A DNA stretch of 64,000 nt from Symbiobacterium thermophilum (GTDB taxonomy: Bacteria; Bacillota; Sulfobacillia; DYFQ01): positions 3,127 through 67,126 of the forward strand of contig DYFQ01000004.1 of the NCBI GenBank assembly GCA_020725105.1, read 5' to 3'. Below the pieces are notes generated by a model. It saw only the letters and a list, made by a program, of their open reading frames with translations, did not search any database and was not told where the DNA came from. Within the stretch, counting starts at the first letter, position 1. Each line of letters opens with the position of its first letter. A program made the translations under genes and the position numbers. This document shows, piece by piece, positions 13,950 to 34,437 of the stretch.

Positions 13950-14861
13950 TCAGTGACGCAGTACCTCGAGCTCCGCTGCCTCCAGGATGTCAGGCACCGC
14001 CTTCTCGTTGCCAACGGCCATGATGTGGACACCGTGGCATAGACGCTCCTCCCGGATGGCCCTCACGAACCGGGCGGCGATCTCTATGCCCTTGTCGCGC
14101 CCCTTCCCTTTCCCCGCCGAGGTCAACTCCTCGATGATGGCCCCGGGAACGGTGATCCCGGGGACGTTGTCGTTCATGAACCTGGCCATCCTGACCGAGG
14201 TGAGGACGATGATGCCGGCCAGGACGTACACATCGAACTGCGAGGCATACTGCATGAACCGGCGAAGGCTGGCCAGGTCGAAGATCCCCTGGGTCTGAAA
14301 GAACCGGGCCCCTGCGGCCACCTTCTTCTCGAACTTGATGAGCTGGGGCTCAATGAAGTCCGCCTCGGGGTGCACGGTCGCTCCGGCAAAGAACCGCGGG
14401 GCGCCCCGCAACGGGTTTCCGGAGAGATCCTGGCCGGACTCCAAGGTCCCCACCAGCCGCAGGAGCTGGACCGAGTCAAGGTCAAATACCGGCTTGGCCT
14501 CCTTGTGGTCTCCCACGTCCACCGAGTCGCCGGTCAGGCAGAGAACGTTGGTGATCCCCCGGGAATAGGCCAGGAGGAGGTCTGCCTGCAGGGCCAGGCG
14601 GTTGCGGTCCCGGCAGGTCACCTGCAGGATGGGTTCACCCCCGCGCTCCTTCACCAGGAGGCAGCCTCCCAGCGAGGGGAAACGCATCACCGAGCTCTGG
14701 TTGTCGGTGACGTTGATCGCGTCCACTCTGGTCTTGAGCAGGTCGATGAGGTGAACCAGCTCCGAGGCGTCCGCGCCCTTGGGCGGGCCGACCTCCGCGG
14801 TCACCACGAACTCGCCGGAGTTCAGTTTCTCCTCAAGCAGGCTGTGGGCCATCTGTCTCAC
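13950..14861 (-). CDS. metF: Methylenetetrahydrofolate reductase, catalytic subunit
   Basis: Full-length MTHFR TIM barrel (FVVTAEVGPPKGAD, QVTCRDRNRLALQADLL, YVLAGIIVLTS). Confidence 0.9.
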   Translation of the reverse strand: MRQMAHSLLEEKLNSGEFVVTAEVGPPKGADASELVHLIDLLKTRVDAINVTDNQSSVMRFPSLGGCLLVKERGGEPILQVTCRDRNRLALQADLLLAYSRGITNVLCLTGDSVDVGDHKEAKPVFDLDSVQLLRLVGTLESGQDLSGNPLRGAPRFFAGATVHPEADFIEPQLIKFEKKVAAGARFFQTQGIFDLASLRRFMQYASQFDVYVLAGIIVLTSVRMARFMNDNVPGITVPGAIIEELTSAGKGKGRDKGIEIAARFVRAIREERLCHGVHIMAVGNEKAVPDILEAAELEVLRH

Positions 14862-15525
14862 CCGGGCCGCCGGCCCTGCTGGTGATCCTCCGCGGACGGG
14901 GAATCGTCCGGAAGTTCCTGGGCGGATAGTACCGGCGCATCTTCTCCAGCTGGTTCAGGGTTTCCAGCCGGCGGTAGATCAGCACCCAGCCGCAGTCCAT
15001 TTCCGGGCTGGCCTCGCACTTGCCGTTCTTGGTACCGGCGCACGGACCGTTGAGCATCCCCTTGGTGCAGCGGGTGATCGGACAGATGCCACCGGTATCG
15101 GCCAGCCGGCAGTCGCCGCAGGCGGCGCACCGCTCGTCCCAGACCCCCCACTCGTCCGCCATGCCCACGAAGGAGGTATTGACTCCGGGCAGCACCGGCA
15201 GGTCGGGGAAATGCTCGGCTATGGCCTGGACTCCCACGCCACAGCCAAGGGACAGCACGGCGTCCACCTCCGCGACCCTGTCCTTGAGCAGGTCCAAGAA
15301 CTCGAGGTCGCACTGCCGCTTCAGGGTGTGCTCGAGGAAGATCCGCGGCTCTCCCCCAGCCCGCGCCCGCGCCACCCTGAGGGCATGGTGCAGATAGGAG
15401 ACCTCGCGCTCGCCCCCGGCACCGCACACGGTCATGCAGGTGCCGCAGCCCACGATGAGGACCCTGGAGTAGGGGGCGAGCATCCTTGCCATCTCGTCCA
15501 GGGGCTTTTGCTCCGCGATGATCAA
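14833..15525 (-). CDS. metV: Methylene-THF reductase small subunit (MTHFR_C, Cys-rich)
   Basis: Cys motifs CGTCMTVCG and CAACGDC...CPITRCTKGMLNGPCAGTKNGKCE are characteristic of MetV in acetogens. Its ATG overlaps the stop of the upstream oxidoreductase (ATGA). Confidence 0.8.
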   Translation of the reverse strand: MIIAEQKPLDEMARMLAPYSRVLIVGCGTCMTVCGAGGEREVSYLHHALRVARARAGGEPRIFLEHTLKRQCDLEFLDLLKDRVAEVDAVLSLGCGVGVQAIAEHFPDLPVLPGVNTSFVGMADEWGVWDERCAACGDCRLADTGGICPITRCTKGMLNGPCAGTKNGKCEASPEMDCGWVLIYRRLETLNQLEKMRRYYPPRNFRTIPRPRRITSRAGGPGETDGPQPA

Positions 15526-17657: not shown

Positions 17658-19312
17658 CTCCGGTCGTCTCCACCTTCGCGTCCCGTCCCGCCCGGCAGCG
17701 GTACTGTCACAGTGATCCGGGTTCCGCGCCCTGGTTCCGACTCGACCTGACAAGTTCCCCCGACCAGCTTGGCCCGTTCCTTCATGGTGAAAAGCCCTGC
17801 GCCCCGGCCGCCTGGCTCCACCCGCGTCAGCCGGCCAACCTCAAACCCCCGGCCGTCGTCTTCCACCCGGAGCACGCACTCGTTCTCGTCGCACTCCAGC
17901 CGAATGGAGGCATGCCTGGCGCCGGAGTGCTCCAGGATGTTGCCGATCAGCCCCTGCGCCACGCGGAAAAAGGTCATCTCCACCTCGGAGGGGAGGCGCT
18001 TGTCCATGCCCTTGAACTCCGTGGTTACGGCAATCCCCCGGGACTGCAGCATGTCCTTGGCGTAGCGCTGGATGGCGGCCGGCAGCCCGAGCTCATCCAG
18101 CAGGGTCGGCCGGAGCGCCTTCATCAGCTTGACGATCTCATTTCCCATGTGCACCGCCTGGGAGTAGGTCTTGTCCAGCATCTCGACCAGCTCGGGGTCG
18201 TTCACGCCCGTCAGCCCGACCATCTCGATGATCGCCTTGAGGTTCAGGGTGAGGCTCGTCAGGGCCTGACTGGTCCCGTCGTGGAGCTCCCTGGCGATGC
18301 GCTTTCGCTCCTCCTCCTGGGCGCTCAGGGCGCGCTGCAACAGGGCCTGGTAGCGTTGCCGCGCTTCCGCCAGCCGCGCGTAGAGCCTGGCCTGCTCGAC
18401 GGCGGCCCCCAGGTAGTCGCCGATCGACTTGAGCAAGGAGACGTCGTCGGGACTGAAGCGACCGACCACAAGGCTGGCCACGTTCATCACGCCCACCACT
18501 TCGCCCCGGCTCCTCAGCGGTATGCTGGCGAAACCCTTGAGCCCCTCGGCGCTGACCAGGTCGGGCCGGACCGTTCGAGGATCGGTGGAAAGATCCTCAA
18601 GCAGCATGGCCTCACCGGTCGCCGCCACCCGGCCCGCTATTCCCTCTCCCAGGGGTATCCGCATCTCCCGTACGTACTTGGGCGACAGGCCGCGGTGCAC
18701 GCGGTAGTGGAGGGTGTCCGTCTCCCGATCCACGAGCAGGATGCCCCCGCTCGAGCCGTTCACCAGCTCCAGGACGTTGTCCAGGGCGATGGTCAGGATG
18801 GAATCCAGGTCGTGAATGCCGCTCACCGCGCTCGAGACGTGATTGAGGGCGAGCAGCCTATGGTGCTGGCGAAGAATCTGGGTCTCCAGCTGGCGCTCGG
18901 CCGTAACGTCTCGTCTGAGCTCGAGGACGGCCCTCACCTTGCCCTGGCGGTCGCGGACCGGATAGGCACTGATCTTGAGGTATGTCTCTGCCCACGGGAT
19001 GCGGGCCGGATGGATGACGGTGGTCATGCGCCCGGACCGGAGCACGCTGCGCAGGGGACAATCCCAGAGGGGGGCCCCGCACGGTCGGTCACGATCATAG
19101 AAGACCTGGTAGCAAAGCTTCCCGACCGGTGATTCAACGCCCCTTCGCAGCCTGCTGCTGGCAGCCCGGTTGGCAAAGCGGATCCGGAACTCGCCGTCGA
19201 TGACCAGGAGGTCATCTTCCATGCTGTCCGCGATGTCCTGGAGCGTGATGTCGAAACCCGCCTGGCCGGAGGACTCCTGGATGACTATGTCCCGCGTGCC
19301 CACGTCTACCAC
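17654..19312 (-). CDS. Sensor histidine kinase, PAS-GAF-HisKA_3-HATPase
   Basis: Cys-containing PAS (CYQVFYDRDRPCGAPLWDCPL), a GAF domain, an H-box ELHDGTSQ (HisKA_3 / NarX-DegS type) and an ATPase G-box (GRGAGLFTMKERAKLVGG). Start is GTG at 19312 or 19303. Confidence 0.8.
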   Translation of the reverse strand: MVDVGTRDIVIQESSGQAGFDITLQDIADSMEDDLLVIDGEFRIRFANRAASSRLRRGVESPVGKLCYQVFYDRDRPCGAPLWDCPLRSVLRSGRMTTVIHPARIPWAETYLKISAYPVRDRQGKVRAVLELRRDVTAERQLETQILRQHHRLLALNHVSSAVSGIHDLDSILTIALDNVLELVNGSSGGILLVDRETDTLHYRVHRGLSPKYVREMRIPLGEGIAGRVAATGEAMLLEDLSTDPRTVRPDLVSAEGLKGFASIPLRSRGEVVGVMNVASLVVGRFSPDDVSLLKSIGDYLGAAVEQARLYARLAEARQRYQALLQRALSAQEEERKRIARELHDGTSQALTSLTLNLKAIIEMVGLTGVNDPELVEMLDKTYSQAVHMGNEIVKLMKALRPTLLDELGLPAAIQRYAKDMLQSRGIAVTTEFKGMDKRLPSEVEMTFFRVAQGLIGNILEHSGARHASIRLECDENECVLRVEDDGRGFEVGRLTRVEPGGRGAGLFTMKERAKLVGGTCQVESEPGRGTRITVTVPLPGGTGREGGDDRR

Positions 19313-23040: not shown

Positions 23041-24030
23041 ATGGTTCACCCCCCCGAGCAAGCGGACGGTCAGGCCGATCTGACCCTCGATACCCTCTCG
23101 CAAAGCATTTCCCGGGCGGCCGACCTGGTCGGCCCCTCGGTCGTCCAGATCACCACCTCGGGCCGTCTCCGCGGGTGGCGCGGCCGTGAGGGGCTGGGCT
23201 CGGGCATCCTGATGGACTCCGGCGGCCACGTGCTCACCAACGCCCACGTGGTGCAAGGCGCCGACGAACTGATGGTCACCCTGCCCGAGGGCCGGCGTTC
23301 CGGCGCGCGGGTCGTCGGCGCCGACGGCCTCTACGACCTGGCGCTGTTGAGCGTGCCCACGAGCCTGGCCAGACACCCCGCCCGGTTCGGCGAGTCCGAC
23401 CGGCTCAGGGTGGGCCAGGTGGTCATCGCCATCGGCAACCCTCACGGCCTGTCCTGGACCGTCACCATGGGGGTGGTGAGCGCGGTGGACCGCACCATCG
23501 CCACTCCGAACGGCGCGGCCCTGGACGGCCTCCTGCAGACGGACGCCGCCATCAACCCGGGCAACTCCGGCGGACCGCTGGCCACCCCCGACGGGCGCGT
23601 GGTGGGCGTCACCACGGCCATGCTCATGGGTGCCCAGGGGATCGGGTTTGCCATCCCCTCCGCCACCGCTCTGCGCGTCGCCGAGCAGCTGCTGGCCACC
23701 GGACGCGCCGTCCACCCGTGGCTGGGTGTCATCGGCACCCCCGAGATCATCGACGAGCGGTGGGTGAAGGCCTTTGACCTGCCGGCCAGCCGGGGGCTGG
23801 TGGTTACCGAGGTCATCCCGGGCAGCCCGGCGCACCGGGCGGGTATCCGGACCTTCGACATGATCGTCCGGCTGGGCGCCCGGCCCGTCAAGAGCCAGGG
23901 AGACATCCGCCAGGAACTGGCTTCCGCCGGGGTCGGGGCGCTGGTGGACACCGTCGTCCTGCGGGGGACCCGGCTGCTGAGCATCCCGGTCCGGGTGGAG
24001 GAATCGCCGCGGACGGCACGCCTGGCCTAG
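23041..24030 (+). CDS. htrA: HtrA/DegP-family serine protease with PDZ domain
   Basis: Trypsin-like triad context (TNAHVV, D, GNSGGPL) plus a C-terminal PDZ. AGAGGGAAGGGA RBS. Confidence 0.85.
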   Translation: MVHPPEQADGQADLTLDTLSQSISRAADLVGPSVVQITTSGRLRGWRGREGLGSGILMDSGGHVLTNAHVVQGADELMVTLPEGRRSGARVVGADGLYDLALLSVPTSLARHPARFGESDRLRVGQVVIAIGNPHGLSWTVTMGVVSAVDRTIATPNGAALDGLLQTDAAINPGNSGGPLATPDGRVVGVTTAMLMGAQGIGFAIPSATALRVAEQLLATGRAVHPWLGVIGTPEIIDERWVKAFDLPASRGLVVTEVIPGSPAHRAGIRTFDMIVRLGARPVKSQGDIRQELASAGVGALVDTVVLRGTRLLSIPVRVEESPRTARLA

Positions 24031-24099: not shown

Positions 24100-25137
24100 A
24101 TGCTTCGAGGGTGTTTCCGGATTGGGGGTTCTGACGTGGGCGACTTCGACTGGCGCCGGCGTCTGGAAGACCTGAGTGCCAGCTGGCGGCGGGTAGACTG
24201 GCGGAGCTTCTGGCGGCGCTGGGGCGTGTGGGTCGGGCTGGGCGGCGTGGTGCTCGTGCTGGCCGTGGCCCGGGGCCTGGACCGAGGTCCCGAGCAGCGA
24301 CCCATCGACCGGGTACGTCTGGGGCCGGAACCCCGGGTCACGGTGGAACTGGACGGCGGCAGCCGTACCCTGCCCATGGACGAGTACGTGGCCGGCGTGG
24401 TCGCCGGCGAGATGGACAACACCTGGCCGGTGGACGCCCTGGCGGCGCAGGCCATCGTGGCCAGGACCTTCGCCCTGCGGGAAATCCAGGACACCGGCGG
24501 CATCATCTCGGCTGACTTCGCGACGGCCCAGGCCTACAAGCCCGACCAGATCAACGACCGGGTGCGGGAGGCGGTCCGCAAGAGCCGTGGCGAGGTCATA
24601 ACCTACCGTGGCGAGTTGATCCGCGCCTTCTTTCACAGTTGCGCCGGCGGCAGGACGGCAACGGCCCAGGAAGGCCTGGGCTTCCGCAAGGAGGAGACAC
24701 CCTACCTTCAGGTGGTCACAGATGACGCCGACTGCACCGGCCGCTTCGGCCAGCGCAAGAACTGGCAGGCGACTTTTGAGAGTCAGGCCGTGCGCCGGGC
24801 CGTCCGACAGGTCACCGGCCGGGACCCCGGTCCCGTCCGGAGCTTCCGGATCGCCGGACGGGGACCTTCCGGCCGCGCCACCGTTTTCGCCGTCAACGGC
24901 GTCCAGGTGCCGGCGCCTGCCTTTCGCCTGGCCATCGGCTCCGAGACCATGCGCTCAACCCTGATCGACCGGATCGAGGTTGTTGGCGGCAGGGTCAGGC
25001 TGGCCGGGCGTGGCTTCGGACACGGTGTGGGGATGGCCCAGTTCGGCGCCCTCGCCCGGGTTCAGCAGGGGTGGTCCCCCGAGCGGGTGATCAGGTACTA
25101 CTTCCGGGACGTGGCCATTGAAAAGCGCTGGGAATGA
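24100..25137 (+). CDS. spoIID: SpoIID/LytB-domain protein (stage II sporulation protein D-like)
   Basis: SpoIID domain with FFHSCAGGRTA and GRGFGHGVGMAQFGA motifs. N-terminal TM segment. Start uncertain. Confidence 0.75.
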   Translation: MLRGCFRIGGSDVGDFDWRRRLEDLSASWRRVDWRSFWRRWGVWVGLGGVVLVLAVARGLDRGPEQRPIDRVRLGPEPRVTVELDGGSRTLPMDEYVAGVVAGEMDNTWPVDALAAQAIVARTFALREIQDTGGIISADFATAQAYKPDQINDRVREAVRKSRGEVITYRGELIRAFFHSCAGGRTATAQEGLGFRKEETPYLQVVTDDADCTGRFGQRKNWQATFESQAVRRAVRQVTGRDPGPVRSFRIAGRGPSGRATVFAVNGVQVPAPAFRLAIGSETMRSTLIDRIEVVGGRVRLAGRGFGHGVGMAQFGALARVQQGWSPERVIRYYFRDVAIEKRWE

Positions 25138-25165: not shown

Positions 25166-25750
25166 TCAGACCTCGGCCGGCGGTGGCGGCTGGCCCCCCG
25201 GCGACCACTCTTCCTCCGGGCGGCCCAAACGGCGGTTGACTGCCCGGGCCAGGACGAAGAACAGGTCTGACAGGCGGTTCAGGTACTGGATCACGCTGTC
25301 GTTCACCGCCGCGCCGGCCGCCAGGGTCACCGCCCGCCGTTCCGCCCGGCGGGCCACCGTTCTCGCCAGGTGCAATAACGCCCCCGCCTGCCCGCCGCCC
25401 GGCAGGATGAACCGGGTGAGCGGCGGGAGTCCAGCCTGATAGTGGTCGATGGCCGCCTCCAGCGCCGCCACCCGTTCCGGCCCCACCCTGGGTACCCGCC
25501 GCGCCCGGCCGGCCGCCCCGCGCCGTGCTGTGGTGGCCAGTTCGGCGCCCAGGTCCAGCAGTTCTGACTGGATCCGGCGGAGCAGCGAGTCGACCTCAGG
25601 GTCGTCCAGCGTCGCTCTGACCACGCCGATCAGGCTGTTCAACTCGTCCACGGTACCGTAGGCCTCGACCCGCCGGTGATCCTTGCGGACCCGCTCGCCC
25701 GTGAAGAGGCTGGTGTTTCCGGTATCTCCGGTTCGCGTGTAGATGCGCAT
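25166..25750 (-). CDS. PduO-type ATP:cob(I)alamin adenosyltransferase
   Basis: MRIYTRTGDTGNTSLFTGERVRKDHRRVEAYGTVDELN is the canonical N-terminus of the PduO/MMAB-type ATR. Confidence 0.85.
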   Translation of the reverse strand: MRIYTRTGDTGNTSLFTGERVRKDHRRVEAYGTVDELNSLIGVVRATLDDPEVDSLLRRIQSELLDLGAELATTARRGAAGRARRVPRVGPERVAALEAAIDHYQAGLPPLTRFILPGGGQAGALLHLARTVARRAERRAVTLAAGAAVNDSVIQYLNRLSDLFFVLARAVNRRLGRPEEEWSPGGQPPPPAEV

Positions 25751-25865
25751 CCGCCACCCGCCCTCCGTCTCCCGGACTTCGGCGCGTTCAAGGTCCGTCC
25801 TTCACCTGCCGATAACCAGAGTGCGCGGCCCCTGTCCGGGCCGGCGGCCCGGCGACCGGCGTCCG

Positions 25866-25895
25866 ACCCCCTGATGTTGGCCGGCGCCGGCCGAA
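25866..25895 (+). promoter_or_regulatory. Candidate sigma-I-type autoregulatory promoter elements upstream of sigI
   Basis: ACCCCC (25866-71) and CGAA (25892-95) resemble the -35/-10 elements reported for sigmaI promoters. The 20-nt spacer is longer than I recall for the consensus, so this is tentative. Confidence 0.25.
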
Positions 25896-25918
25896 TCCCA
25901 TACCGGGCAGGATCGTTG

Positions 25919-26632
25919 ATGCAAGCAGCTGACCTTGACCTGCTGGTCATGAAGGCCAAGGGTGGTGACGGCACCAGCCGGGAACTGGTGCTGGAGCGCT
26001 GCCGCCCGTTCATCGTCAGGGTGGCAAGCCGCCAGGCCAAGCGCTTCCTCGACTGGGAGAACGACGACGAGTTGAGCGTCGCCCTGGTGGCCCTCAACGA
26101 AGCCATCGACGCCTACCAGCCCCAGACCGGCGCGGGGTTTCTGGGCTTCGCCCAGGTGGTCATCACCCGCCGGCTGGTGGACTACTTCCGCCGCCAGGGA
26201 AGGCACATGGCGGAGACCCTGGACGGCGGCGGCTGGACCGAGGACGGCAGCCTGGTCCGCCTGGCCCGGCTGGAACAGGCCCGGCGGGAAGAGGAGGCGG
26301 CGCGCGCCGAGGAACTGCAGGAACTGAAGGCGGTGCTCAGCACGTTTGGCATCAGCCTGCGCGAACTGGCCCGGGTGGCGCCGCGCCGCGTGGACGCCCG
26401 CCAAGGCCTGGCGCAGGCCGCCCGGGTGCTGGCCAGCGACCCAGTTCTCGTCCAGCAGCTCTACTTCACCCGGCAACTGCCCCTGGCCGCGCTGGCCGGC
26501 CGGGTCCGGGTGTCGCGCAAGACCCTGGAACGGGGCCGCAAGTACCTGATCGCCCTCGCCATCGTCCTGGACCGGGGCCTGGACCACCTGATCGAGTACC
26601 TCAAACCGCTGTTTCGGGAGGGCCGGGCATGA
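25919..26632 (+). CDS. sigI: RNA polymerase sigma factor SigI
   Basis: 237 aa. The region-2 and region-4 pattern is typical of SigI (LLVMKAKGGDGTSRELVLERCRPFIV, FLGFAQVVITRRLVDYFR). An ATGA overlap leads to a downstream RsgI_N-domain gene. Confidence 0.8.
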   Translation: MQAADLDLLVMKAKGGDGTSRELVLERCRPFIVRVASRQAKRFLDWENDDELSVALVALNEAIDAYQPQTGAGFLGFAQVVITRRLVDYFRRQGRHMAETLDGGGWTEDGSLVRLARLEQARREEEAARAEELQELKAVLSTFGISLRELARVAPRRVDARQGLAQAARVLASDPVLVQQLYFTRQLPLAALAGRVRVSRKTLERGRKYLIALAIVLDRGLDHLIEYLKPLFREGRA

Positions 26633-27747
26633 GGCGCGGTATCGTGGTGGACATGGATGGCCGCCGGATCACGGTGGTGACCCCGTCCGGCCAGGTGGAG
26701 AACCTGCCAAGCCACCGCTGGCAGCACCCGCCCCGGTTGGGGCAGGAGATACTGCTCCCCGAACGCCCGGGACTCCGGGCGACCGTCGCCGCGGGCCTGA
26801 GCCGCCTGGGCCAACTGCCGGGGCGAGGCCGCCCGGCCCGGCGGCCACGCTTCCGGCTGCCGGCCCTGGTCCTGCCCAGGCCTGCCGTGTCGCTGCCCGC
26901 GCCGCGCCACATTCTTGGCTGGCTCGCGCAACGCCGGGCGCCCGCGGTCCTGGCGTCCGTCCTGGCCGCCACCGCCGTGGTGGCCGTCGGACTGACCCTG
27001 CCGGCCGTGTGGAACCCTCCCGTGGCCACCGTGGGCCTGGAAATCAACCCCCGGCTGGAACTGGCCGTCACGGCCGATGCCCGCGTGGCGGCGGTCCGCG
27101 CCCTGGACCCGGCCGGCTCGGCCGTACGGGACCTGGCCCGGTCCCGAACGCCGGCCTGGCCGCGGGGCTGGTGGGACTGGCGGAGCCGGCCTGAACTGGC
27201 CTCGGCCGTGACAGACCTGGTGACCGCCGCCCGCGACCTGGGCTATCTCTCCGATGGGGGGGCGGTGGTGGCGGCCGTGGTACCCCTGCGGGCGGCCGTC
27301 GACCCTGGCCTGATGTGGGAAGCCGTCCAGGAGGCCGTCACCCGGCTCGTGGCCACCGAGACCGGGACGATCCTCGTCGCCGTCCGCGCCACTCCCGAGA
27401 CCCTGGGCGCCGCCCGCGAGGCCGGCATGTCAATAGGTCTGTACCTGATGAGCCGGGCAGCCGAGATCGCCGGGGCTCCCCGGCCGGCGGAGCCCGGGGC
27501 CGGCCTGGGCCGGTGGGTCGGCGCTATCGGCGGGCCGAAGCGGGCGGCCGTCCTCCAGGCGGCGCTGGAGCAGGTGACCGAGGTGGTCGTGGTGGAGGTG
27601 CGGTCCACGGGCCGCGACGTCGACTCACAGCCCTCATCGGTCACCGGCGCCGACACCGACACCCCGGCTCCCCCTCCCGCCGAGCGGGAGCCCCGGCGCC
27701 GGCCCCGCGAGCCGCAGCCCGGACGCGGGCCGGTACCCCAGCCCTGA
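26629..27747 (+). CDS. rsgI: Anti-sigma-I factor RsgI-like protein
   Basis: RsgI_N domain (MRRGIVVDMDGRRITVVTPSGQVENLP), a single TM helix (VLASVLAATAVVAVGLTLPAV), then an Ala/Arg/Pro-rich extracytoplasmic region with no recognisable CBM. Confidence 0.7.
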   Translation: MRRGIVVDMDGRRITVVTPSGQVENLPSHRWQHPPRLGQEILLPERPGLRATVAAGLSRLGQLPGRGRPARRPRFRLPALVLPRPAVSLPAPRHILGWLAQRRAPAVLASVLAATAVVAVGLTLPAVWNPPVATVGLEINPRLELAVTADARVAAVRALDPAGSAVRDLARSRTPAWPRGWWDWRSRPELASAVTDLVTAARDLGYLSDGGAVVAAVVPLRAAVDPGLMWEAVQEAVTRLVATETGTILVAVRATPETLGAAREAGMSIGLYLMSRAAEIAGAPRPAEPGAGLGRWVGAIGGPKRAAVLQAALEQVTEVVVVEVRSTGRDVDSQPSSVTGADTDTPAPPPAEREPRRRPREPQPGRGPVPQP

Positions 27748-27788
27748 CCCGGGGCTCAGCGCCGGCGGCCCCGCTACCCCGGCCGGCC

Positions 27789-29279
27789 CTACCGACCCGG
27801 AATGCCTGGCTCGGTCATGGGTCCGGGGTCGAGAACGCGTTCCAGTTCTTCCTCGGAGAAGATGCCCCGCTCCCGCACCACGTCTCTGACCCGGCGCCGC
27901 GACCGGTGGGCCTCCTGGGCGATTCTGGCCGCCTCGGCGTAGCCGATGTAGGGCGTCAGCGCGGTGGCCAACATGAGACTGTCCTCCACCAGTTCCCGGC
28001 AGCGCTCCGGGTCGGCGGTGATGCCGGCCACGCACCGCTCGGTGAGGACCCGGGCGGTGTTCTTCAGGATCTCCAGGGAGAACAGCAGGTTGTGGCAGAT
28101 GACCGGCATCATCACGTTGAGCTCCAGTTGCCCGGCCTCGGCCGCCAGCGCCACGGTGAGGTCGTTGCCCATCACCTGGAAGCAGACCATGTTGGTCATC
28201 TCGGCGATGACGGGATTCACCTTGCCCGGCATGATGGAGGACCCGGGCTGGACCGGCGGCAGGACGATCTCGGCCAGGCCCGCACGCGGTCCGGACGACA
28301 GTAGCCGGAGGTCGTTGGCCAGCTTGGACAGGTCGACCGCCAGGGCCCGCAGAGCGCCCGAGAACTCCGCCAGGTCAGCCATGGACTGCATGGAGGCTAC
28401 CCGGTCCGGGGCCGGGCGAAAGTCGACGCCGGTGAGGCTGGATATGTGCTGGACCACGGTGGCGATGTACTCGGGCTCGGCGTTGACGCCGGTGCCCACG
28501 GCGGTGCCGCCGAGGCCCAGTTCCTTGACGCTTTCGGCGGCCCGGTGGATCCGGGCCACCGCCCGGCGCATGTTCTCGCCGTAGCCCCGGAACTCCTGGC
28601 CCAGCCTGATGGGGGTGGCGTCCTGCAGGTGGGTCCGCCCCGCCTTGACGATGGGATCGAACTCCCGCGCCCGGGCCAGGAGCGAGTCGGCCAGGGCCAC
28701 CAGCCGGGGCCTGGTCTCCCGCCATAAGACGACCACGGCCACCCGCATGGCGGTGGGGAAGAAGTCGTTGGTGGAATGGGCCATGTTCACGTGGTCGTTG
28801 GGATGGACCAGCGTGTACTCCCCCCGGCGCCCGCCGAGCAACTCGGCGGCGCGGTTGGCCAGCACCTCGTTGACGTTCATGTTGTGGGACGTGCCGGCGC
28901 CGGCCTGGTAGACGTCCACCACGAACTGGCCTCGCCAGCGGCTTGACGGCGACGCCAGGTCCGCCAGGATCTCATCGGCGGCCTGGCAGATGGCCTCGCC
29001 CACGGCGCGGTCCAACCGGCCGGTGGCCATGTTGCTCATGGCCGCCGCCCGCTTCACGAGCAGGCTGGCTCTGAGGAAGACCGGGTGGGCCCGTAGCCCG
29101 GAGATGGGGAAGTTCTCGACGGCGCGCGCTGTCTGGGCCCCGTAGTAGGCGTCGGCGGGGACCCTCACCGGGCCGAGGGAGTCCCTTTCGGTCCTGGTTT
29201 CGGCGGCCTCCTCACCCGTCCTCGCCGGCGGACAGGCATAGGCTGGCAAAGTATCTGACAACGTGGTCACCTTCCTCAA
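27789..29279 (-). CDS. aspA: Aspartate ammonia-lyase (aspartase)
   Basis: Close motif match to AnsB/AspA (ENFPISG, QAADEIL, GAGTSHNMNVNEV, HSTNDFFPT, GSSIMPGKVNP). TTG at 29279. An alternative TTG at 29261 has a better RBS (GAGGAAGGTGA). Confidence 0.85.
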   Translation of the reverse strand: MRKVTTLSDTLPAYACPPARTGEEAAETRTERDSLGPVRVPADAYYGAQTARAVENFPISGLRAHPVFLRASLLVKRAAAMSNMATGRLDRAVGEAICQAADEILADLASPSSRWRGQFVVDVYQAGAGTSHNMNVNEVLANRAAELLGGRRGEYTLVHPNDHVNMAHSTNDFFPTAMRVAVVVLWRETRPRLVALADSLLARAREFDPIVKAGRTHLQDATPIRLGQEFRGYGENMRRAVARIHRAAESVKELGLGGTAVGTGVNAEPEYIATVVQHISSLTGVDFRPAPDRVASMQSMADLAEFSGALRALAVDLSKLANDLRLLSSGPRAGLAEIVLPPVQPGSSIMPGKVNPVIAEMTNMVCFQVMGNDLTVALAAEAGQLELNVMMPVICHNLLFSLEILKNTARVLTERCVAGITADPERCRELVEDSLMLATALTPYIGYAEAARIAQEAHRSRRRVRDVVRERGIFSEEELERVLDPGPMTEPGIPGR

Positions 29280-29328
29280 AGGCGGCGTGGAATGGTATCC
29301 GGCGCTGGCGCCCGCAAGTAGTCTTAGC

Positions 29329-30222
29329 CTAGTTCAAGAGGTCACGCAGGTTTTCCCTGAGCGGGTGCTCGCGAAGCCGGGCCAGGGCCCGGGTCTCGAT
29401 CTGCTTGGTCCGCTGCTTGGAAATACCCAGCCGGCGGCTGATCTCCCGGAAGGTGCACGGTTCTTCCCCGCCAAGGCCCAGCCGGAGGGTGATCACTTCC
29501 CGCTCCCGCTCGGTCAGGCCGGCCAGCATGGCCTCGACGGACTCCCGGGCCAGCCGGCCGCAGGCCAGGTCAAACGGCCCATCGTCGTCCGAAGCGATCA
29601 GGTCCGACACGTGGCCGTCCCCGCTCTCCAGGGGGTAGTCCAGCGAGAGCACGTTGCGGGACCGCTCGTACAGCCGCCGCTTCTCCTCGGCTTCGGGGCT
29701 CAGGTTCTGCCGGGACCCGTCGTCGGCCCCCGTGGCATCCCAGGCGCCGTCCAGGTCCAGCGAGGCCTTGATGTGGTAGTAGGAACTGACGGGGAGGTGG
29801 ATCAGCCCGGACTGCTCGACGACGGCCCGGCCGATGGCCTGCTGGATCCACCACCAGGCGTAGGTGGAGAACCGGAAGCCTTGCCGCCAGTCGTACCGTT
29901 CCACCGCTTTCAGGAGACCCACGTTGCCTTCCTGGATCAGGTCGGCCAGGGGGACGCCGCGGCCCTTGAAGCGGTAGGCCACCTTGACCACCAGCCGCAG
30001 GTTGGCTTCGATCAGCCGCCGGCGGGCTTCGGGGTCCCCCGCCTCGACGCCCTGGGCCAGACGGACTTCCTCGTCAGGCGTCAGTAACGGGACGCGGCCG
30101 ATCTCCTGCAGGTACGGGGTAAGGGCTTCCGGACCCGGCTGCGGTCCGGCTTCCCGGGAGCTGGCCGTTTCGGCGGCGGTAGCGGGTGGTACCCCGCCGG
30201 TGGCCTCGGCGCTGCGGGACAC
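29329..30222 (-). CDS. Sigma-70 family sigma factor, RpoD-like (group 1/2-type region 2.4)
   Basis: Region 2 (LIQEGNVGLLKAVERYD...FRFSTYAWWWIQQAIGRAV) and region 4 (TEREREVITLRLGLGGEEPCTFREISRRLGISKQRTKQIETRALARLR). GTG start at 30222 with GAGGGAGG RBS and a 10-nt spacer. The tracked ORF start (TTG 30270) lies inside the promoter. Confidence 0.8.
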   Translation of the reverse strand: MSRSAEATGGVPPATAAETASSREAGPQPGPEALTPYLQEIGRVPLLTPDEEVRLAQGVEAGDPEARRRLIEANLRLVVKVAYRFKGRGVPLADLIQEGNVGLLKAVERYDWRQGFRFSTYAWWWIQQAIGRAVVEQSGLIHLPVSSYYHIKASLDLDGAWDATGADDGSRQNLSPEAEEKRRLYERSRNVLSLDYPLESGDGHVSDLIASDDDGPFDLACGRLARESVEAMLAGLTEREREVITLRLGLGGEEPCTFREISRRLGISKQRTKQIETRALARLREHPLRENLRDLLN

Positions 30223-30268
30223 GGTCTGCCAACCTCCCTCAGGTACGGCAGGTTGAAGGCGCATTCCC

Positions 30269-30298
30269 AATATATTCGAGATGTTAGCACTATGTCAA
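30269..30298 (-). promoter_or_regulatory. sigmaA-type promoter (TTGACA-17-ATATAT/TATATT) driving the RpoD-like sigma factor gene
   Basis: Minus-strand TTGACA at 30298-30293, a 17-18 nt spacer and a -10 near 30275-30269, in a local AT-rich patch. The predicted TSS is ~40 nt upstream of the GTG at 30222. Confidence 0.45.
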
Positions 30299-30440
30299 TA
30301 GTATTAACTGCGCAAAGCCCTTCCCGCCAGTGCCGTGCCGTCAGGAGGGGAATCGGCTGCCGCGGCCGCGGGGCAGACTCCACTTGGAGCCGCGCGCACG
30401 ACAAGCCACGGCAAGCCACACGAAAGGGGCGAACAGACCG

Positions 30441-30674
30441 GTGCCCGAGGTCAAGTGCGAAGTCGCCAGTTGTTACTACTGGGCGCAGGGGAACCACTGC
30501 GCCGCCGAGTTCATCGAGGTGGCCAACACCCGGACCCACCGTGGGGGCATGGAGGTGGGACGCCTGGGCAACCAGGCCTACGCGACCACGTCGCAGGAGA
30601 CCTGCTGCGCCACCTTCACGCCCAAAGAGCACGGGCCCAAGGAGAACGTTCGCCGCCAGGACGCGCACCGCTAG
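30441..30674 (+). CDS. DUF1540-domain small cysteine-rich protein (spore-associated family)
   Basis: MPEVKCEVASCYYWAQGNHCAAEFIEV...ETCCATFTPK matches the duplicated DUF1540 Cys motif. GTG start with GAAAGGGG RBS. Confidence 0.7.
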   Translation: MPEVKCEVASCYYWAQGNHCAAEFIEVANTRTHRGGMEVGRLGNQAYATTSQETCCATFTPKEHGPKENVRRQDAHR

Positions 30675-30804
30675 CCACTTCATCACGCGGCGCGGCCGCC
30701 CGCCGGCCAGGCCGCGGGCCAGACGAAACCCGGGCCCCAGGAGCATCTGGCTCCCGGCCGGCCCGGGTTCGCTGGCCCACTCACACCGGGTTCGGGCGCA
30801 GTGC

Positions 30805-31263
30805 CTAGCTACGCCACTCGCGTTCCTCGCGGCCGCCCGGGGCGGCAAAGGTGGGCCCACCATACGTCGGGTAAGGCTCGGGCGCGCCCACGTGGCGCCC
30901 CTGGTCACGACCGTACTGGGGCCCGACCCCCGGCATGGCGCCGGGGATCATGCCTGCCGGCGCCTGGGCGTAGGGCTCGGCCCGGACGGTGCCCCGGTAA
31001 TCGTGAACGAACTTGGACACCTTGTGCTGGTCGGCGGCGGACACCTCGTACCAGCCCTTGTGGTGCAGGTACTCGAAGAGTTCGTAGTGCCGCTCCAGGT
31101 GGTCGTTCATGAGCGCCATGAAGCTGTTCCGGACTGGCCGGTTGGCCGCCTCGACGGTGCCCGTGTGATAGAAGGACGACAGGAACTTGCACGCGTCCAG
31201 GCACGCGAAGGCGATGGTCCGGTCGTCCAGCCGGTGGGCATGGGGTTGCGGGTGAACGCTCAC
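30805..31263 (-). CDS. Spore coat protein F-domain (CotF-like) protein
   Basis: Coat_F-like helical region (LDDRTIAFACLDACKFLSSFYHTGTVEAANRPVRNSFMALMNDHLERHYELFEYLHHKGWY). GTG start with GGAGAAAGGAGG RBS. Confidence 0.65.
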   Translation of the reverse strand: MSVHPQPHAHRLDDRTIAFACLDACKFLSSFYHTGTVEAANRPVRNSFMALMNDHLERHYELFEYLHHKGWYEVSAADQHKVSKFVHDYRGTVRAEPYAQAPAGMIPGAMPGVGPQYGRDQGRHVGAPEPYPTYGGPTFAAPGGREEREWRS

Positions 31264-31306
31264 GCGCTGCCTCCTTTCTCCGCTTCTGCGTCGCCATGGC
31301 ACAGGT

Positions 31307-31803: not shown

Positions 31804-32682
31804 CTAGGCGAAGTCCTTCAGGATCCTGGCCCAGTCCTGCTCGGGGAAGCTGAGGTCGAACTGGCGAGCCAGCGGTTCTTTGGCCAGCCCGGGCAGTTCC
31901 GCCTCGAAACTGGGCCGCTCCTCCTGGTAGATGAGACCTCGCACCAGACCCTCGTGCTGGAGAACCACGCGGATGGCGCCCGTCCGGTCGTGCGGGTCAT
32001 ACTCCGGTTCGTCGTCCAGGTTCACGCAGTTCTCCCGCCAGAAGTCGTAGGTGTCCTCCCGGTTGAAGGTGACGCAAGGGCTCAAGACGTTCAGATAGGC
32101 AAACCCCCGGTGCTTGATGGCCATTTCCACCAGCCTGGTCAACTGCTTCACGTCACCGGAGAAGCCCTGGGCCACAAAGCTCGCCCCCGCCGCCAGGGCC
32201 GTCTCCAGCGGCCGGACCGGGTATTCGGCCGTGCCGTAGGGGGAGGTCTTGGTCTTCATCCCCTTCCGGGACGTCGGCGAAGCCTGGCCGGTGGTCAGGC
32301 CGTAGATGTGGTTGTCCATCACCATGTAGACCAGGTCGATGTTGCGCCGGACGGTGTGCAGGAAGTGGGACAGGCCGATCCCGTATCCGTCACCGTCGCC
32401 GCCGAAGACGACGACCGTCAGATCACGGTTGGCCAGCTTGATGCCGGTGGCCACCGGGATCGCGCGGCCGTGGACCGAGTGGAACCCGTAGGCCCCGAAG
32501 TACGAGGGCGCCTTGGAGGAGCAGCCGATGCCGCCAACCACCACCACCTGGTCCGGGCTCAGCCCCAGCCCGGCGCAGGCCCGCTGCAGGGCCGCCAGGG
32601 CCGGGAAGTCGCCGCAACCCGGACACCAGGTGGACGGCTCCACGATGGACTGCTTGTAATCCATCACCGTTACCCGGGCCAC
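31804..32682 (-). CDS. korB: 2-oxoacid:ferredoxin oxidoreductase beta subunit (TPP-binding)
   Basis: CPGCGDF...GIGCS TPP/FeS motifs and a GDG Mg-TPP site. Directly abuts korA. Confidence 0.9.
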   Translation of the reverse strand: MARVTVMDYKQSIVEPSTWCPGCGDFPALAALQRACAGLGLSPDQVVVVGGIGCSSKAPSYFGAYGFHSVHGRAIPVATGIKLANRDLTVVVFGGDGDGYGIGLSHFLHTVRRNIDLVYMVMDNHIYGLTTGQASPTSRKGMKTKTSPYGTAEYPVRPLETALAAGASFVAQGFSGDVKQLTRLVEMAIKHRGFAYLNVLSPCVTFNREDTYDFWRENCVNLDDEPEYDPHDRTGAIRVVLQHEGLVRGLIYQEERPSFEAELPGLAKEPLARQFDLSFPEQDWARILKDFA

Positions 32683-34437
32683 CTATACCACCTCCTTTGC
32701 CATCCGGTAGATCTCGTTCGCGGTGAAGGGGTTCCCGTCGAACTTGAGGCAGCTTCGAATGCGGTCCTTGAACCCCAACCTGAGTTTGATCAGGTTAGCC
32801 ACCTGGCCGGAGTAGTTCGATTCCACCACCAGCACGTGCCTGGACGCCTCCAGGTAGCGGGCCAGCCCCGCCTCGGGCAGCGGCCAGAGCGCCTTCAGGT
32901 GCAGCCGGCCCACTCGGGCCCCCTCGTCGGCCAGCTTCCGCCAGACTTCGGCGATGGGCCCGTAGGACGAGCCGTAGCCTACCAGCAGGAGATCGGCCCG
33001 CTCCGGACCGTGGTGCTCCAGAGCCCAGTCCGACAGGTCAAGCCCGTGGAGCTTCTTCATCCGCTTGTGCATCTGGCGGACCCGGTTCTCCGGGCTTTCC
33101 TCCTCCACGCTGATCTCGGAATGCTCGTTGGACAGCGACGTGAACCGCCCGTTGGGCTGGCCGGGCACCGTCCGGGGGGAGATGCCCGATTCGGTCAGCC
33201 GGTAGCGGGCAAAGGTCCCCGGCGTCACGTCCTTCAACTCGTCGTCCGTCACGCGCAGGCCACGGTCCCACGTCCAGGTGCCGGTGGCCAGGTCGGCCAC
33301 GGGGACCGACTGGCGGGACAGGCCCAGCGCCAGGTCGGAGACGACGATCACCGGGCACTGGTAATGCTCGGCCAGGTTGAAGGCCCGGCCCATCACGTGG
33401 AAGCAGTCAGCCACCGTCGAGGGCGCCAGCACGATCCGGGGCGACTCCCCGTGGGAGCCGTAGACGATGGTGTTCAGGTCGCCCTGCTCGGTCTTGGTGG
33501 GCAGCCCGGTGCTGGGCCCCGCCCGCTGGACGTCCACGATCACCAGCGGCACCTCGGCGATGCCGGCCAGGCCCAGGGATTCCATCATCAGCGACAGCCC
33601 GGGACCGGAGGTGGACGTCATGGCCCGGACCCCGGCGAAGCCGGCGCCGATGGCCATGAAGGCGGCCGCCATCTCGTCCTCGCCCTGAACAATGGCGCCA
33701 CCGTACCTGGGGAAGTACTTGAACGCGGTGTACAGGATCTCGGTGGCCGGCGTGATGGGGTAGGCAAACAGGAGCCTGCACCCGGCCACCAGCGCGCCCA
33801 GGGCGATGGCGTCGTTGCCCGACAGGTACGCCGACTCGGGGCGGTCCGTCACCACGTCGGCCAGCACCTGCCTGGGCGTGAAGTGGGTCTTGTAATAGTC
33901 GTAGCCGGCCATGAAGGCCTTGCGGTTGGCCTCCACCACCTGCTCGCCCTTGTCGCCGAACCGGTCGCGGATGGTCGTTTCGAAGTCGGCCAGTTCCAGA
34001 CCCAGCATGGCGGCGGAGACACCGACGGCTACCATGTTCTTCATGATCGACCGACCCTGCTCTTCCGCCAGCCTGGTCATGGGCACGGGCATGAGTTCAA
34101 GCTCCCGGCCTTCAGGAACCCGGGCCACGAAGGCGGCGTCGTGAACGATGGCCGTGCCGTCTCTCAACTGGGGGAGGTTATAGTCGATGGACTCCTGATC
34201 GAAGGCGACCAGCAGGTCGTCCTGGTCGCCGCGGTGCCACACGGGACCCGAGCGGACCCTGATCTTGTAATGGGTGTGTCCGCCCTTGATCCGGGACATG
34301 AAGTGCCGGTAGGCATATACATAAAAGCCCCGGCGGTGCATCGCCTGGGCGAAGATCTCGCCGGTGGAATCGATGCCCTCGCCTTGCTGGCCCCCCACCT
34401 TCCAGGTGAAATCGATAACCCTGGTGACCACACTCAA
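32683..34437 (-). CDS. korA: 2-oxoacid:ferredoxin oxidoreductase alpha subunit (fused alpha/gamma)
   Basis: 584 aa with the POR N-terminal and transketolase-like domains. TTG start with GGAGTGAGGTG RBS. Confidence 0.9.
   Translation of the reverse strand: MSVVTRVIDFTWKVGGQQGEGIDSTGEIFAQAMHRRGFYVYAYRHFMSRIKGGHTHYKIRVRSGPVWHRGDQDDLLVAFDQESIDYNLPQLRDGTAIVHDAAFVARVPEGRELELMPVPMTRLAEEQGRSIMKNMVAVGVSAAMLGLELADFETTIRDRFGDKGEQVVEANRKAFMAGYDYYKTHFTPRQVLADVVTDRPESAYLSGNDAIALGALVAGCRLLFAYPITPATEILYTAFKYFPRYGGAIVQGEDEMAAAFMAIGAGFAGVRAMTSTSGPGLSLMMESLGLAGIAEVPLVIVDVQRAGPSTGLPTKTEQGDLNTIVYGSHGESPRIVLAPSTVADCFHVMGRAFNLAEHYQCPVIVVSDLALGLSRQSVPVADLATGTWTWDRGLRVTDDELKDVTPGTFARYRLTESGISPRTVPGQPNGRFTSLSNEHSEISVEEESPENRVRQMHKRMKKLHGLDLSDWALEHHGPERADLLLVGYGSSYGPIAEVWRKLADEGARVGRLHLKALWPLPEAGLARYLEASRHVLVVESNYSGQVANLIKLRLGFKDRIRSCLKFDGNPFTANEIYRMAKEVV

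Follow-up and report, generated by a model that had tools for sequence, protein, structure and literature searches.

A sigI gene and the gene for its RsgI anti-sigma factor lie together in the 64,000-nt (64-kb) stretch of Symbiobacterium thermophilum DNA analysed here, hereafter the window. The locus raises the question of what the extracytoplasmic region of this RsgI is made of, and to which of the described types of SigI-RsgI signalling the pair belongs. An earlier note, made by inspection of the DNA, had treated that region as uncharacterised and the signal it senses as consequently unclear.

The sigI-rsgI gene pair and its putative promoter

The two genes are on the same strand (Table 1), and the ATG of rsgI (26629-26631) overlaps the TGA of sigI (26630-26632) by 4 nt in the sequence ATGA, an overlap found in 38 of the 57 loci compared. 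The coordinates, together with NCBIfam and Pfam matches, bear out the earlier description of sigI overlapping a gene for an RsgI_N-domain protein; the SigI-RsgI assignment is supported by NCBIfam SigI (E 4e-66) and by Pfam RsgI_N and RsgI_M. The gene call for sigI (GC3 0.89) in the Logan assembly of SRR5011277, whose DNA is identical to the window across 25805-30164, likewise gives 237 aa and a start at 25919. Two longer readings were dropped: an ORF from 25676, where the extension (25676-25918) has a GC3 of 0.69 and lies ahead of the called start, and a start at the ATG at 25874, which is 5′ of the -10 element described below.

Table 1 Features of the sigI-rsgI locus, in window coordinates
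Feature	Position	Strand	Details
-35-like element ACCCCC	25866..25871	+	putative sigmaI-dependent (autoregulatory) promoter; exact match
-10-like element CGAA	25892..25895	+	20 nt 3′ of ACCCCC
sigI	25919-26632	+	237 aa; sigma-2-like N domain and SigI-specific C domain
rsgI	26629-27747	+	372 aa
RsgI_N domain	26629..26757	+	rsgI codons 1-43; cytoplasmic, SigI-binding
Cytoplasmic linker	26758..26934	+	rsgI codons 44-102; Arg/Pro/Leu-rich, unusually long
Single transmembrane helix	26935..27009	+	rsgI codons 103-127
SEAL / RsgI periplasmic domain (Pfam RsgI_M)	27016..27576	+	rsgI codons 130-316
N140-P141 codons	27046..27051	+	predicted autoproteolytic (site-1) scissile bond; beta1-beta2 hairpin
Trp-rich insertion TPAWPRGWWDWRS	27148..27186	+	13 aa, codons T174-S186; loop between SEAL helices alpha1 and alpha2
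Disordered Pro/Arg-rich C-terminal tail (IDR)	27577..27747	+	rsgI codons 317-372 and stop; short

SigI matched the NCBIfam SigI models over their full length, with E-values from 4e-66 to 1e-36. All scores are slightly under the curated cut-offs, the best being 222.9 against 319 (NF006174), 215.5 against 244 (NF006175) and 179.9 against 185 (TIGR02895). Judged by its sequence, the protein is a divergent member of the SigI subfamily rather than a non-member, despite these sub-cut-off scores. Its sigma-2-like N domain is recognised by Pfam Sigma70_r2 (E 1.5e-7, 31.5 bits, cut-off 24) and aligns with the N domains of SigI6 and SigI1 of Clostridium (Acetivibrio) thermocellum. A Pfam scan of SigI found no Sigma70_r4; the SigI-specific C-terminal domain stands there instead, with residues 128-228 aligning with the SigI1 C domain (6IVU_B, E 1.3e-10). 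Both domains were covered in phmmer comparisons with the solved SigI6 (8I24_F, residues 12-228, E 1e-33) and SigI1 (E 2e-27), and full-length SigI aligns with 8I24_F and 8I23_F.

The ACCCCC and CGAA elements that had been noticed upstream of sigI are indeed present, on the sigI strand of a 168-bp intergenic region, and their reading as an autoregulatory promoter is supported. By chance, about 0.63 such motifs are expected in the 64-kb window over both strands and about 1e-3 in the sigI intergenic region; the copy at sigI is the sole intergenic, correctly oriented ACCCCC-N19/20-CGAA in the 64 kb. Two other matches, at 15143-15171 (+) and 46779-46750 (-), were rejected as SigI regulon promoters: both are antisense within coding regions, and about 0.6 matches are expected by chance across the window. 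The ACCCCC element precedes sigI in 47 of 80 related loci and also in the two nearest relatives. Its distance to CGAA is 20 nt in 20 of these 47 loci and 19 nt in 26, so that the 20-nt spacer described earlier as atypical proves ordinary on comparison with related sigI/rsgI pairs (19 or 20 nt in 46/47). The Bacillales consensus is ACCCCC--AA-15N-CGAA (PMC4711584). The -35-like element fits it, but the AA (A-tract) that extends the -35 element and the downstream T are missing from the sigI promoter.

ACCCCC-N20-CGAA is a supported candidate for the cognate SigI promoter of the sigI-rsgI operon. In open complexes of SigI the CGWA element covers -14 to -11 (PMC10575876), which would put the transcription start of sigI near 25906; the ATG at 25919 is probably served by AGGA at 25909-25912 as ribosome-binding site. 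SigI6 reads C-14 and G-13 of CGWA with R97, R98, D101 and R104 of helix alpha4; these align with R84, R85, D88 and R91 of the window SigI, the last three being invariant across a five-sequence alignment. A scan of 25500-28000 found neither a sigma-70 promoter nor an intrinsic terminator; rsgI is followed only by a weak inverted repeat of 9 nt. An Rfam scan of the entire 64-kb window gave no match, and the window yielded neither a RasP gene nor a further SigI-type promoter.

Domain architecture of RsgI

RsgI relatives were sought by an exhaustive HMMER search of 1.8 billion representative proteins. None exceeded about 35% identity; 22 distant relatives are all RsgI-like and carry the DINPS motif. 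The comparison set comprised 58 SigI-linked RsgIs, namely that of the window and 57 others. Word-indexed homologue searches with the RsgI protein or an alignment returned almost nothing but the query, the 8000 candidates scored there having probably been picked mostly by words from the low-complexity tail. SigI alone as a query against genome contigs found no relative, whereas an alignment-based scan of contigs did.

The N-terminal domain was recognised by Pfam RsgI_N at residues 1-42/43 with an E-value of 2.3e-5 and 24.6 bits, 0.4 under the cut-off of 25. It was predicted with high confidence (AF2 pLDDT ~95), and Foldseek matched it to 6IVS (rmsd 1.7 Å, E 0.09), the RsgI1-N structure that the family profile also matches. 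The domain lies inside the span of a leave-one-out family profile match. The linker that follows has pLDDT below 50 at residues 62-86, and the segment between RsgI_N and beta1 is 89 aa long, more than in any of the 57 relatives (median 42, maximum 77). The sole hydrophobic segment, residues 103-127, reaches a Kyte-Doolittle 19-aa maximum of 2.34 at residue 106 and coincides with an AF2 helix at residues 97-128. Arg residues lie on its N-terminal side, and we infer a topology with the C-terminus outside.

On the far side of the helix are 245 aa (A 17%, V 12%, R 11%, P 11%), the last 56 of which include 12 Pro and 8 Arg; the earlier account of a C-terminus of about 250 residues, rich in Ala, Arg, Val and Pro and ending in a Pro/Arg-rich stretch, was accurate. 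The larger part of this region matches Pfam RsgI_M (PF23750; 33.3 bits, cut-off 25.3), and the leave-one-out family profile matches residues 1-288 with 155 bits. AlphaFold modelling, which had been suggested as a check, gave a SEAL fold with pLDDT mostly above 90, consisting of a core to about residue 280 and two C-terminal helices, followed by the disordered tail. The best Foldseek match of the model was the SEAL domain of Bacillus subtilis RsgI (8T9N, E 4e-7, TM 0.80), the C. thermocellum RsgI2 periplasmic domain (8HDJ) was matched with a TM of 0.73-0.77, and the ten best matches are all RsgI SEAL or periplasmic domains. The family profile, searched against the PDB, matches 8T9N, 8HDJ, 8U9O and 6IVS. 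A phmmer search of PDB sequences with RsgI alone gave no match even at E <= 10; the link to solved structures could be made only with the family profile and by comparing folds.

The tail is disordered over about 55 aa (mean pLDDT 41-59 for residues 321-372). Measured from the GxSxGxY motif it extends for 99 aa, the third shortest of the 58 (relatives: median 208, range 54-410). As had been stated, Pfam at E <= 0.01 found no CBM, GH or PA14 module in RsgI, and no Pfam domain in the tail. This absence had been presented as an oddity, but it is the rule: none of the 58 SigI-linked RsgIs carries such a module, while RsgI_M is present in 58/58 and RsgI_N in 57/58. Because of the PF23750 match and the 8T9N and 8HDJ fold matches, residues ~130-316 can no longer be called uncharacterised: the extracytoplasmic region of RsgI is the known SEAL/RsgI_M domain followed by a short disordered tail. 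The structure and autoproteolytic role of the SEAL domain were published in 2023 (PMC10328401; bioRxiv 10.1101/2023.06.27.546760), and cell-wall defects are sensed in B. subtilis by the IDR of RsgI (PMC9732909).

The scissile pair and a model of signalling

DSSP analysis of the AF2 model places N140-P141 in a three-residue loop (139-141) between beta1 (133-138) and beta2 (142-147). The Asn-Pro pair, at which cleavage has been shown experimentally in homologues, is invariant in 58/58 RsgIs. Its surroundings are not: the usual DINPS is replaced by EINPR, unique among the 58, as is each of the flanking residues E138 and R142. Chen et al. described seven RsgI2 residues that surround the scissile bond or hold beta1, namely Y91, D95, S99, N117, D119, R206 and R218. 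The corresponding residues here are T134, E138, R142, D160, A162, L259 and L271, so that none of the seven is kept, against 4-7 in each of the 57 other RsgIs, and the contacts D95-R218 and Y91-R206 that hold beta1 in RsgI2 are impossible. Unique, too, is the Trp-rich insertion (low pLDDT at residues 179-182), by which the segment G163-L197 comes to 35 aa compared with 22-24 aa in 57/57 other RsgIs. In the sequence around its autocleavage site, RsgI stands far outside the range of the others.

Mutational studies of homologues bear on what this may mean. Cleavage is abolished only by mutating the Asn or Pro of the scissile pair. Since single mutants of D95, S99, N117, D119 and R218 in RsgI2 leave cleavage unchanged, the shell residues are not strictly defining for an RsgI, and double mutants of shell residues show partly lowered cleavage. 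In B. subtilis RsgI the main driver of cleavage is hairpin strain; replacing single neighbouring residues only slows the reaction.

The best explanation, to which we assign a probability of roughly three in four, is that sigI and rsgI form a bicistronic, probably self-activating operon of the B. subtilis type, in which SEAL autoproteolysis leads to intramembrane proteolysis on envelope stress. It builds on what was observed: the gene structure, the homology of both proteins, the ectodomain fold, where the Asn-Pro pair sits, a disordered tail, and the promoter motif with its spacing. That RsgI cleaves itself, that RasP and Clp take part, what the stimulus is and which genes form the regulon we infer. 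The N-terminal domain of RsgI would keep SigI at the membrane. The SEAL domain would most likely cut itself at N140/P141, a shared beta-sheet keeping the halves together. The short Pro/Arg tail may be the sensor, as the IDR is for cell-wall defects in B. subtilis, and would exert the pull that removes the cleaved ectodomain. An extracytoplasmic stub of ~13 residues would then let a RasP/RseP-type site-2 protease cut inside the membrane, Clp proteases would degrade the N-terminal RsgI fragment, and the freed SigI would transcribe ACCCCC-N20-CGAA promoters, its own included. Several observations count against this explanation: with the conserved shell lost, autoproteolysis of RsgI is not guaranteed; the tail is short and Pro/Arg-rich (~55 aa disordered, ~157 aa in B. 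subtilis); the RsgI_N score and the SigI NCBIfam scores are slightly sub-cut-off; and the promoter lacks the AA and the downstream T, with no RasP gene or other SigI-type promoter in the window.

The same shell replacement could instead mark a degenerate or re-wired SEAL domain that keeps the Asn-Pro pair and autocleaves very slowly or not at all, being controlled by other means such as a regulated site-1 protease, thermal unfolding of the ectodomain or a ligand at the Trp-rich loop. The complete loss of a shell of which every other RsgI keeps at least four residues fits this idea, as do the unique substitutions E138 and R142, the unique insertion, the beta1 contacts that cannot form, the partial defects of RsgI2 double mutants and the natural exception of C. 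thermocellum RsgI8. Yet N140 and P141 are intact, the three-residue hairpin is retained in the model with high confidence, strain in that hairpin is what mainly drives cleavage in B. subtilis, where neighbouring mutations only slow it, and there are no close relatives to show that selection maintains the changes. We consider it unlikely that this RsgI is a natural variant without autocleavage or with another release trigger (heat, ligand); were it so, nature would have provided a test of whether strain in the hairpin is by itself enough for SEAL autoproteolysis.

Polysaccharide sensing as in C. thermocellum, with a C-terminus that binds extracellular carbohydrate, would share the SigI/RsgI family and the SEAL domain, and the Pro-rich tail recalls a wall-crossing linker ahead of a CBM. 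However, Pfam finds no CBM, PA14 or GH, and beyond the SEAL domain RsgI has only ~55 residues, all disordered. Genes for glycoside hydrolases or cellulosome components were not found near sigI-rsgI, and with its ACCCCC element the promoter resembles those of Bacillales, not the A-tract promoters of clostridia; we regard this reading as effectively refuted. The earlier note had also raised the concern that the C-terminal region might be an artefact of a GC-rich frame or conceal a stop or frameshift. The region is 74-78% G+C, the 3′ half of rsgI is rich in Ala, Arg, Pro and Val and the other frames hold many long spurious ORFs, all of which would suit a translation artefact, a pseudogene or a frameshifted read-through. 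Against this, GC3 stays at 0.86-0.92 and GC2 at 0.48-0.72 throughout when the rsgI frame is taken in 150-nt blocks, a pattern that matches neighbouring genes, RsgI_M homology spans residues 130-288, and AF2 pLDDT exceeds 90. Because GC3 is high throughout and the independent Logan assembly is base-identical, the artefact is excluded and the rsgI reading stands.

The main value of the analysis lies in a correction: what had been taken for an unknown sensor is the SEAL domain of RsgI, already well described, followed by an IDR, and the promoter, too, is of the canonical kind. The pair is therefore a divergent new member of the IDR-bearing B. subtilis type, extends the known spread of these SigI/RsgI systems by a high-G+C lineage, and most likely serves envelope-stress signalling. 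Because it is an extreme outlier at the autocleavage site without a relative above about 35% identity, RsgI could serve as a natural mutant for asking which part of the conserved shell is needed for SEAL autoproteolysis and for retention of the ectodomain.

Comparison with known SigI-RsgI systems

B. subtilis SigI-RsgI acts in cell-wall homeostasis and heat, through RasP-dependent intramembrane proteolysis. Like it, the window pair has overlapping genes in one operon and an ACCCCC/CGAA-type promoter. Its RsgI likewise runs from RsgI_N through one transmembrane helix into a SEAL domain next to the membrane and then a disordered tail, without any other domain; the beta1-beta2 hairpin again holds the Asn-Pro scissile pair, and the B. 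subtilis SEAL domain is the best fold match. The disordered C-terminus without a folded sensor (pLDDT 41-59, no Pfam domain) is that of the B. subtilis type. The window RsgI differs in that sequence identity to the solved B. subtilis SEAL domain is only about 18%, the scissile motif is altered, the shell is lost, the Trp-rich insertion is extra and the linker on the cytoplasmic side has about 45 aa more. The tail is Pro/Arg-rich where that of B. subtilis has mixed charged and polar residues, and the promoter is without the extended -35 AA.

The nearest sigI-rsgI relative found, in the MAG 'Clostridiales bacterium MTF170219_bin_3' (JBBIPI010000049.1), is also of high G+C, with a SigI 57-58% identical and an RsgI of equal architecture that likewise ends in a Pro-rich tail. 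ACCCCC-N19-CGAATACC lies 5′ of its sigI, a spacer of 19 nt compared with 20 nt in the window. The RsgIs, however, are only 28-29% identical, and that of the MAG keeps DINPS and 5/7 shell residues, has a shorter linker and is without the Trp insertion.

C. thermocellum SigI1-9/RsgI1-9 are polysaccharide-sensing cellulosome regulators. The window SigI matches their SigI6 and SigI1, and its RsgI has the fold of their periplasmic domains (8HDJ, 8HER, 8HEP, 8U9O) and the Asn-Pro autocleavage site. It differs from these RsgIs in having no C-terminal CBM3, PA14, CBM42 or GH10 sensor, or any other carbohydrate-binding or glycosidase-like module (Pfam, E <= 0.01), and its -35 element is ACCCCC in place of their A-tract motif with 13-14 nt spacing. 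The exception in that family, RsgI8 (Clo1313_0524), resembles the window RsgI in lacking a recognisable sensing module and in its non-canonical cleavage region. In RsgI8, however, the Asn-Pro pair itself is lost (Asp-Ala), whereas the window RsgI keeps the pair and has lost the conserved residues that surround it.

Gene structure, putative promoter and identity of SigI

The gene for the sigma factor SigI is contained in a plus-strand open reading frame at 25676–26632. Independent gene calling on a Logan contig places its start at 25919 (237 amino acids), and GC3 is 0.69 in the 5′ extension (25676–25918) versus 0.89 from this ATG onward. The ATG of rsgI, encoding the membrane anti-sigma factor of the pair, overlaps the sigI TGA (26629–26631 on 26630–26632), confirming the arrangement described in the earlier note; 38 of 57 related loci share this 4-nt overlap. 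Because they are flanked by divergent and convergent minus-strand genes, sigI and rsgI are a two-gene unit.

The 168-bp intergenic region carries the ACCCCC and CGAA elements already noticed from the sequence, 20 nt apart. This spacer had been called atypical, a reading that does not survive comparison. In the Bacillales consensus, ACCCCC--AA-15N-CGAA, the equivalent distance is 19 nt (PMC4711584), and the motif precedes sigI in 47 of 80 related loci with spacings of 19 nt (n = 26), 20 nt (n = 20) and 18 nt (n = 1), so that 20 nt falls in one of two normal classes. In the two nearest relatives the elements read ACCCCCACTT and CGAATACC, with 19 nt in all between them; an A-tract (AA) after ACCCCC and a T downstream of CGAA are absent from these relatives and from the putative promoter here. 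Since CGWA occupies −14 to −11, transcription would start near 25906, giving a leader of 13 nt in which AGGA stands 6 nt ahead of the ATG. Two further ACCCCC-N19/20-CGAA matches, at 15143–15171 (+) and 46779–46750 (−), are antisense within genes (14833–15525, −, and 46336–47079, +) and are therefore probably chance occurrences rather than SigI promoters; by chance alone, about 0.63 matches would be expected per window.

SigI matches all NCBIfam SigI models over their full length (E down to 4e-66), with scores somewhat below every curated cut-off, and aligns over both domains with the solved Clostridium thermocellum SigI6 (8I24_F, E 1e-33) and SigI1 (8I23_F, E 2e-27). In SigI open complexes, C-14 and G-13 of CGWA are read by SigI6 R97, R98, D101 and R104 (PMC10575876), which align with R84, R85, D88 and R91 here.

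Coordinates of the sigI–rsgI locus and of features in RsgI
Feature	Window position (strand)	RsgI residues	Remarks
PduO-type adenosyltransferase gene	25166–25750 (−)		divergent flank
ACCCCC	25866–25871 (sigI strand)		promoter element
CGAA	25892–25895 (sigI strand)		promoter element
rsgI	26629–27747 (+)	1–372	372 aa
RsgI_N		1–43	pLDDT ~95
Cytoplasmic linker, Arg/Pro/Leu-rich	26758–26934	44–102	59 aa; disordered at 62–86, pLDDT <50
TM helix		97–128	AlphaFold2; hydropathy maximum 104–127
β1		133–138	SEAL core to ~280, pLDDT mostly >90
Loop I139-N140-P141		139–141	within SEAL core
β2		142–147	within SEAL core
Trp-rich insertion	27148–27186	T174–S186	13 aa; SEAL α1–α2 loop
Two helices		293–316	pLDDT ~78
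Unstructured tail		~321–372	pLDDT 41–59
Aspartase/fumarase-class lyase gene	27789–29279 (−)		convergent flank

Genomic neighbourhood and sampling

The scan of species-representative genomes, a collection from which the window's genome is absent, returned only two SigI relatives near 57–58% identity (locus L002 and loci L003/L006 of the MAG 'Clostridiales bacterium MTF170219_bin_3'). The nearest locus belongs to a 'Clostridiales bacterium' MAG (58%) and all other matches are at or below 43%; the lineage is very poorly sampled.

Around the locus lie genes for SpoIID (24100–25137, +), a DUF1540 protein (30330–30674, +) and a CotF-domain protein (30805–31302, −), with a strong positive AT skew (0.27) at 30250–30750. 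These sporulation-associated genes and the skew together suggest an endospore-forming member of the Bacillota with ~70% G+C. A second sigma-70 family factor (313 aa, regions 1.2, 2 and 4; 29329–30270, −) is encoded on the opposite strand, two genes past rsgI in the downstream direction. Two sites hint at anaerobic, possibly acetogen-like metabolism: at 14833–17753 (−), a gene whose product has a C-terminal domain like that of the MetV methylene-THF reductase adjoins one for an HdrA-like flavoprotein that includes an MvhD domain, and 31804–34437 (−) encodes a two-subunit 2-oxoacid:ferredoxin oxidoreductase. Upstream of sigI but outside the operon, 23041–24030 (+) encodes an HtrA-like serine protease (trypsin/PDZ) of possible relevance to envelope stress; the genes for SpoIID and the adenosyltransferase, the latter divergent, lie between it and sigI.

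RsgI carries a SEAL domain

RsgI matches Pfam RsgI_N at residues 1–42 (24.6 bits, 0.4 short of the cut-off) and, at a significant score, PF23750 RsgI_M, the 'anti-sigma factor RsgI-like central domain' or SEAL domain (33.3 bits, cut-off 25.3). Searched exhaustively with HMMER, 1.8 billion representative proteins yielded 22 distant relatives, none better than E 6e-9, all RsgI-like and all (22/22) with D-[IVF]-N-P-S directly after the TM helix. Residues 1–288 score 155 bits against a profile of these made without the query, its members having been picked by similarity to the window protein. The family profile matches the B. subtilis RsgI SEAL domain (8T9N, E 1e-32), the periplasmic domains of C. 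thermocellum RsgI2, RsgI9, RsgI6 and RsgI1, and RsgI1-N (6IVS). An AlphaFold2 model built from the 23-sequence alignment (mean pLDDT 76) found only RsgI SEAL or periplasmic domains among its ten best Foldseek matches in the PDB (8T9N, TM 0.80, E 4e-7; 8HDJ, TM 0.73–0.77).

SEAL domains cleave themselves between a conserved Asn and Pro in the β1–β2 hairpin; the fragments remain associated, and self-cleavage substitutes for site-1 proteolysis in a RasP/RseP-dependent pathway, as described in 2023 (PMC10328401; bioRxiv 10.1101/2023.06.27.546760). The extracytoplasmic region is thus not uncharacterised, as the earlier note had it; with the spacer, this is where that note fails, its observations otherwise largely holding. 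The part after the TM helix is indeed rich in Ala (17%), Val (12%), Arg (11%) and Pro (11%), and the final 56 residues contain 12 Pro and 8 Arg.

A substituted shell and the proposed signalling scheme

An adjacent RsgI could be extracted from 57 of the 80 sigI loci, which came from the species-representative scan with a SigI alignment, giving 58 proteins with the window RsgI. N140 and P141 are invariant in all, but the flanks read EINPR here versus DINPS, each change being unique among the 58. Chen et al. described seven conserved residues around the scissile bond or holding the cleaved β1 (Y91, D95, S99, N117, D119, R206 and R218 in RsgI2; PMC10328401). None of the seven is kept here (T134, E138, R142, D160, A162, L259, L271), whereas each of the 57 others keeps at least four. 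The α1–α2 segment is 35 residues versus 22–24 in the others, owing to the insertion TPAWPRGWWDWRS, which has four Trp, low AlphaFold2 confidence and no counterpart in any of the 57. RsgI_N and β1 are 89 residues apart (relatives: median 42, maximum 77), and the tail beyond the GxSxGxY motif (99 residues versus a median of 208) is the third shortest of the 58.

That this RsgI is a cleavage-defective or re-wired SEAL variant is unlikely, if not negligibly so. Shell residues mutated singly leave cleavage in place, double mutants reduce it partially (PMC10328401), and hairpin strain is the main driver in B. subtilis (bioRxiv 10.1101/2023.06.27.546760); on these grounds autoproteolysis remains our expectation, though our confidence in it is moderate and not high. 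A polysaccharide sensor is very improbable, as the protein has no binding module; CBM, GH and PA14 domains occur in none of the 58 (RsgI_M in 58, RsgI_N in 57), and the missing sensor module is not unusual. Least probable of all in this window of ~70% G+C is a frame artefact or pseudogene, for which the earlier note had set checks of its own and which is refuted by GC3 (0.86–0.92 per 150-nt block, as in neighbouring genes), the AlphaFold2 model, the family profile score and a Logan assembly of SRR5011277 that is base-identical over 25805–30164.

The anatomy is that of a SigI–RsgI system, and by analogy with B. subtilis and C. thermocellum we infer its proteolytic steps, stimulus and regulon (probability of the overall scheme about 0.75). 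SigI would be sequestered by RsgI_N, and the SEAL domain would cut itself at N140/P141 with the ectodomain remaining bound. Envelope stress, sensed by the disordered tail, would lead to ectodomain removal, leaving a 13-residue stub that allows a site-2 cut within the TM helix, after which the N-terminal fragment would be degraded and free SigI would switch on its own promoter and a further regulon. In B. subtilis, the RsgI IDR is needed for SigI activation upon cell-wall defects and still functions when scrambled or exchanged between homologues (PMC9732909). The pair adds a new, divergent member to a known system, of modest specialist interest for keeping its Asn-Pro site within a shell that is fully substituted, and the B. 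subtilis architecture, in which a low-complexity tail follows the SEAL domain, is common to the SigI-linked RsgIs compared.
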